DNA from: Shigella phage TB004
Length of the DNA: 64,000 bases
Sequence record: MW822011
Reading direction: 5' to 3' (one strand)
Shown here: positions 12,846-13,542 of the stretch, piece by piece
Position numbering within the stretch: the first letter of the stretch is position 1
Layout of the letters: each line of letters begins with the position of its first letter
Program-made: the position numbers and the translations under genes
The notes under the pieces: model-generated
Database searches by the model: none
Seen by the model: only the letters and a program-made list of their open reading frames with translations
What the model was told of the DNA's origin: nothing

Positions 12846-13087
12846 TGTCTGAACAAACTATTGAACAAAAACTGTCTGCTGAAATCGTAACTCTGAAGTC
12901 TCGTATCCTTGATACGCAGGACCAGGCGGCTCGTCTGATGGAAGAATCCAAAATTCTGCAAGGAACTTTGGCTGAAATTGCTCGTGCAGTAGGTATTACT
13001 GGCGATACTATCAAAGTTGAAGAAATCGTTGAAGCTGTCAAGAATCTTACTGCCGAATCTACTGATGAAGCAAAAGATGAAGAATAA
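12845..13087 (+). CDS. 57A: tail-fibre assembly chaperone gp57A
   Basis: 80-aa acidic coiled-coil protein [23 protein letters not shown]... Confidence 0.8.
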
Positions 13088-13542
13088 TGGAATTTAAAGA
13101 CTTTTCAACGGGTCTTTATGTAGCAGCTAAGTTTTCAGAATTAACACTTGATGCGCTGGAAGAACTCCAGCGCTCTTTACGTGTTCCTAATCCAGTTCCT
13201 AGAGAAAAAATTCACTCGACCATATGTTATTCAAGAGTAAATGTTCCATATGTTCCATCGAGTGGAAGTTTTGAAGTAGCTTCTTCTGGACATTTAGAAG
13301 TATGGAAAACACAAGATGGATCGACTCTTGTACTTGTACTAGATTCTGAATATCTGCGCTGTCGACACATGTATGCGCGGGCACTAGGTGCTACACATGA
13401 TTTTGATGATTACACACCGCATATAACATTGTCTTATAATGTTGGACCCTTATCATTTAGCGGTGATGTACAAATTCCGGTCGTATTAGATCGTGAATAC
13501 AAAGAGCCTCTTAAACTCGATTGGGCAGATGATTTAAAATAA
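13087..13542 (+). CDS. 57B: gp57B, 2H phosphoesterase (Acb1-type anti-CBASS nuclease family)
   Basis: 151 aa with two H-x-T motifs (IHSTICY at H43, PHITLSY at H112) typical of the 2H fold; T4 57B position. Confidence 0.7.

Follow-up and report, generated by a model that had tools for sequence, protein, structure and literature searches.

Gene 57B of bacteriophage T4 was found by activity-guided fractionation to encode an enzyme that degrades 3′3′-cGAMP, and the enzyme was named Acb1 (Hobbs et al. 2022, PMC9117128). The Acb1 of Erwinia phage FBB1 folds as a compact 2H phosphoesterase and has a C-terminal lid (residues 145–152) that shuts over the ligand, and a crystal structure of Acb1 with bound 3′3′-cGAMP has been published (PMC9117128). 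The bases are stacked by the aromatic residues Y12, W74, F107 and W147, the N6 of adenine is read by E141, and the HxT/HxT tetrad of H44, T46, H113 and T115 lies under the scissile phosphate (PMC9117128). The enzyme needs no metal, cuts 3′ of adenosine and reaches GpAp by way of a cyclic phosphate intermediate, and the H44A/H113A enzyme is catalytically dead (PMC9117128). In a transposon screen, 57B was dispensable on K-12 and important only on a host expressing CBASS. Transcripts of T4 57B/acb1 are found mainly in the middle and late phase, as are those of vs.4, which published work equates with acb2, a cyclic-nucleotide sponge.

Two further groups of enzymes resemble Acb1. The poxvirus cGAMP phosphodiesterases are reported to have fold, active site and lid in common with it; in these enzymes, however, the lid is N-terminal and the substrate is the animal cGAS-STING signal (PMC12064943), and the likeness is drawn here from description rather than from sequence. 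The LigT / 2′-5′ RNA ligase family likewise combines two HxT/S motifs with a small metal-independent phosphoesterase fold, but its substrates are RNA ends, whereas those of Acb1 are cyclic oligonucleotides. Here we describe the 57B locus of Shigella phage TB004 (sequence record MW822011) within a window of 64,000 nucleotides, the whole stretch of DNA that was analysed. The features discussed below are collected in Table 1.

Table 1. Features of the 57B (acb1) region and of the acb2 locus; nucleotide positions are those of the window, and residues are numbered from the ATG at 13087.
Feature	Position	Strand	Remarks
Gene 2	10621-11445		
Gene 1, dNMP kinase	12132-12845	+	97% identical to T4
Gene 57A, tail-fibre assembly chaperone	12845-13087	+	Pfam GP57, 2.6e-50
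acb1 (57B) CDS	13087-13542	+	ATG start, 151 aa plus stop (stop within coordinates)
Catalytic tetrad of the 13087-13542 protein	H43, T45, H112, T114		HxT/HxT
Base-stacking/contact residues of the 13087-13542 protein	Y11, W73, F106, E140, W146		Hobbs et al. 2022 (PMC9117128)
C-terminal lid of the 13087-13542 protein	~residues 144-151		C-terminus intact to residue 151
Promoter-like site, T4 early type	13556-13584	+	TTTACA, 17-nt spacer, extended -10 TG, TACTAT; pattern match only
Internal-head-protein genes	13621-13893 and 13954-14262	+	phrog_7673 and phrog_2667
tRNA cluster, 10 genes	15288-16817 region	+	includes Tyr and Asn, absent from T4
acb2 (vs.4)	25143-25409	+	88 aa, 95% identical to T4 vs.4; Pfam Acb2_Tad1_hairpin, 1e-19

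The 57B gene product and its family

A preliminary description of this DNA had proposed that the gene encodes a 2H phosphoesterase of the Acb1 type, pointing to two H-x-T dyads (H43-S-T and H112-I-T) and to a place in the genome corresponding to that of T4 57B. Both dyads are present exactly as described, and H43-S-T45 and H112-I-T114 are the sole H-x-[ST] motifs in the 151-residue translation. By itself, the motif pair is weak evidence for Acb1. When the Acb1 residues were shuffled 200,000 times, at least two H-x-[ST] motifs appeared in 16% of the shuffles, at least two H-x-T motifs in 2.3%, and two H-x-T motifs 50–90 residues apart in 0.7%. The case for Acb1 therefore has to rest on homology.

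The alignment to T4 57B that the preliminary description had called for gives identity at 151 of 151 residues (NP_049750.1, E = 2e-116), which bears out the proposed Acb1 type. The two coding sequences differ at five nucleotides, all five of them synonymous and none non-synonymous, a pattern consistent with purifying selection. Along with the sequence itself, the T4 and TB004 proteins have in common the position after 57A, the tetrad and the ligand-contact residues. Nine of the nine residues named by Hobbs et al. (PMC9117128) are kept: Y11, H43, T45, W73, F106, H112, T114, E140 and W146 here are Y12, H44, T46, W74, F107, H113, T115, E141 and W147 in the T4 numbering.

At the level of families, the Pfam profile PF23474 (“Anti-CBASS protein Acb1”) matches residues 8–149 over its entire length (profile positions 1–144 of 144) and scores 202.7 bits where the cutoff is 27 bits (E = 2.6e-60). 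The features that define Acb1 are thus found together in this protein: a full-length profile match, homology to T4 57B, the HxT/HxT tetrad, the stacking residues, the adenine-specific Glu and the lid. Scanning with NCBIfam returned no matching model for either Acb1 or Acb2. Homologues occur in 1,485 phage records, in 498 of which they are at least 99% identical, and the labels that they carry vary among “hypothetical protein,” “RNA ligase,” “cyclic phosphodiesterase,” and “anti-CBASS protein Acb1.”

Of the proteins with a solved structure, the closest match is the Acb1 of Erwinia phage FBB1 (PDB 7T26, apo, and 7T27, with 3′3′-cGAMP; E = 4e-62), with 68% identity over 141 aligned residues. The assignment to the 2H phosphoesterase superfamily, also put forward in the preliminary description, is upheld by this homology to an Acb1 crystal structure with a 2H phosphoesterase fold, together with the Pfam Acb1 match. 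In the numbering of the TB004 protein, FBB1 Acb1 keeps the tetrad H, T, H, T as well as Y11, E140 and W146. It differs at two stacking positions, with F for W73 and Y for F106, and by a one-residue indel near residue 79. PDB 9Q2G is a marginal sequence match (E = 0.0044); this entry and 9Q2Y are structures of divergent Acb1 proteins, which have the Acb1 name and the HxT...HxT layout in common with the protein described here.

The sole Pfam match other than PF23474 is to 2_5_RNA_ligase2 (LigT / 2′-5′ RNA ligase, PF13563). It covers only residues 80–122 and, at 13 bits (E = 0.11), falls below the gathering threshold of 27 bits. This weak match belongs to a different reading of the gene, in which its product ligates or repairs RNA as an enzyme of the LigT / 2′-5′ RNA ligase type, with RNA ends as substrates and the repair of T4 tRNAs as one possible task. 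The protein is assigned in PHROGs to phrog_755, which is labelled “RNA ligase,” 57B is annotated likewise in RefSeq T4 and in many relatives, and a tRNA cluster lies ~1.7 kb downstream of the gene. However, the LigT-family score is far under its threshold and is dwarfed by the score for the Acb1 family, and the identical protein hydrolyses cyclic oligonucleotides, with a crystal structure available in which 3′3′-cGAMP is bound (PMC9117128). No ligase activity is reported in the published work on the enzyme that we consulted. The function given by PHROGs and RefSeq is rejected here in view of the sub-threshold LigT profile and the published biochemistry of cyclic-nucleotide hydrolysis; we consider it very improbable, and the label is probably a legacy misnomer that stems from common membership of the 2H superfamily.

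The Acb1 reading is based here on sequence identity to the characterised enzyme, on membership of its family, on synteny and on an active site that is intact. With a probability of about 0.97, we take the gene at 13087–13542 to be acb1 (57B) in a T4-like Tequatrovirus, which would encode a small, 2H-fold, metal-independent phosphodiesterase that disarms CBASS. The preliminary description had regarded this as known rather than new biology, rightly so, given that the protein is identical to the founding Acb1, T4 57B.

Start codon and transcription of acb1

The T4 annotation of 57B is one residue longer (MMEF...), and the TB004 protein lacks that N-terminal Met. In T4 the stop codon of 57A is TGA and the junction reads ATGATGG, with two ATGs, whereas here the 57A stop is TAA, whose last base is also the first of the acb1 ATG (TAATG), and the junction TAATGG holds the second ATG only. 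The first Met of T4 is therefore absent because a TAA stop in place of TGA removes the upstream ATG, and it is for want of this first ATG that the histidines numbered 43 and 112 in the preliminary description are H44 and H113 in T4.

The arrangement with the second ATG only, overlapping 57A, occurs in TB004 and in many relatives; Escherichia phage 236Ecol005PP, for example, has the same TAATG junction, and its gene is annotated Acb1. The overlap of the 57A stop with the acb1 start makes translational coupling plausible. We regard it as possible, although on balance doubtful, that the true start of Acb1 lies one codon later than in the T4 annotation and that its synthesis is translationally coupled to that of 57A. 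Coupling, if true, would fit the reported middle and late expression of Acb1. No strong Shine-Dalgarno sequence lies within 30 nt upstream of the ATG of acb1.

A scan for sigma-70-type promoters returned 18 sites, against 16.2 in shuffled sequence, and this is no excess that would point to a dedicated acb1 promoter. Similarly, the window contains 13 copies of the T4 late-promoter motif TATAAATA against 11 expected, which is no enrichment, and the nearest upstream plus-strand copy to acb1 is at 12482, within gene 1. Just beyond the 3′ end of acb1 is the promoter-like stretch of T4 early type (Table 1), with conservation in both T4 and phage 236Ecol005PP. This candidate promoter would serve the internal-head-protein genes rather than acb1, whose transcription unit would have its 3′ boundary there. 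Two antisense ORFs on the minus strand, at 13199–13384 and 13227–13370, were set aside as mechanical ORFs without support.

Genome context and collinearity with T4

The gene order around acb1 is that of T4: genes 2, 3, 1, 57A and 57B, followed by internal-head-protein genes, homologues of trna.4, trna.3 and trna.2, and the tRNA cluster. The gene lies directly 3′ of 57A and the gene 1 dNMP kinase, and the T4 57B position named in the preliminary description is thereby confirmed. Within the dNMP kinase, a four-residue gap aligns at T4 residues 105–108 (EGKE). On a larger scale the window is collinear, in reverse, with T4 from ~88,067 to 25,497, with ~84–98% identity across segments (local blastn) and with breaks at the usual hypervariable segments. 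In the databases, the genomes nearest to it are those of Tequatrovirus phages (~96% over 10 kb). By these comparisons the window is that of a T4-like Tequatrovirus, a relative of T4 rather than T4 itself.

Immediately downstream of acb1 the two phages diverge. In T4 the next gene is ipI, which encodes an anti-GmrSD internal protein; in TB004 ipI is replaced by two other internal-head-protein genes, whose products are only 34% (13621–13893) and 19% (13954–14262) identical to T4 IPI. Both products begin with MKTFKEFINEA, which resembles the capsid-targeting leader of T4 internal proteins. The variable locus adjoining acb1 has been called an anti-defence island by Hobbs et al. (PMC9117128).

The tRNA cluster further downstream lacks the T4 homing endonuclease gene segB. 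A tRNA that ARAGORN calls ‘Met’ (CAT anticodon) stands at the place of the T4-annotated tRNA-Ile, and tRNA-Arg is followed by a 184-aa ORF (16263–16817) with a MUG113/T5orf172 domain. Beyond the cluster lies a 1.65 kb segment (17131–18781) that blastn does not match to any of the T4 regions compared. It contains ORFs without Pfam matches, among them one at 17171–17551 with a Pro/Lys-rich C-terminal half and another at 17930–18433.

Several other differences between the window and T4 concern the presence or absence of homing endonucleases. T4 80217–80775, comprising most of segC, has no counterpart here, and since the flanking alignments abut at window positions ~7288–7293, the phage is without that homing endonuclease. 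The nrdD gene (region 43383–46496, plus strand) is a single 605-aa ORF and so lacks the I-TevII intron of T4. It is separated from nrdG by a 279-aa ORF (45197–46036) with weak, sub-threshold NUMOD-type matches. The first 13–14 residues of this ORF (MNYDRFYPCDFVN) are similar to those with which nrdG begins (MNYDRIYPCCFVN). It looks as though a mobile endonuclease gene, at the position of mobC in T4, had duplicated its target site. Finally, two tandem paralogous ORFs on the plus strand (31368–31922 and 31929–32450) each contain the domains T4_y05I_N and T4_y05I_C, as in a y05I-like putative transcription factor; the second of them lies near the position of mobD in T4, in DNA that T4 does not match.

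Predicted mechanism and role against host defence

We infer the substrates, chemistry and anti-CBASS phenotype of the TB004 protein by transfer from experiments on the identical T4 protein. The enzyme would bind the di- and trinucleotide messengers made by host CBASS CD-NTases (3′3′-cGAMP, cUA, cAAA and cAAG, and not c-di-GMP), and its C-terminal lid would shut over the ligand. Acid-base catalysis by the H43/T45/H112/T114 tetrad would then cut 3′ of adenosine, yielding a 2′,3′-cyclic phosphate intermediate and finally a linear product with a 3′-phosphate, such as GpAp. In this scheme the CBASS effectors (Cap5, CapV and Cap4) would never be activated, and abortive infection would be avoided.

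It has to be considered whether the main natural targets of the enzyme lie beyond CBASS, for example in the cA3/cA4 of type III CRISPR, or whether the gene is a liability that triggers guards of the Panoptes type, so that in either case anti-CBASS activity would be no more than a part of its role; the former is favoured by the cleavage of cAAA by T4 Acb1 and the assays of cA4 cleavage (PMC9117128), and the latter by the finding that Panoptes of types I and II restricts Tevenvirinae phages with intact acb1, whose escapers inactivate the gene (PMC13577387), but direct in vivo evidence so far concerns CBASS evasion, the enzymology would be the same, and such readings, which we think even less probable than an RNA ligase, extend the CBASS explanation and do not contradict it.

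Judged by homology, both T4 anti-CBASS genes, acb1 and acb2, are present in the window. With both intact, resistance to many CBASS systems is predicted. Panoptes guard systems sense the loss of decoy cyclic nucleotides (PMC13577387), and the same pair of genes would also predict sensitivity to Panoptes-type decoy-nucleotide guards. These predictions may be useful for reasoning about host range and phage therapy, and they open no new question. What TB004 carries is the founding Acb1 sequence in another Tequatrovirus backbone, with a biology that is already known. The main value of the finding is in annotation: the gene should be labelled as encoding the anti-CBASS protein Acb1 (cyclic-oligonucleotide phosphodiesterase) and not, as many of the nearest database entries have it, an “RNA ligase” or a “hypothetical protein.”
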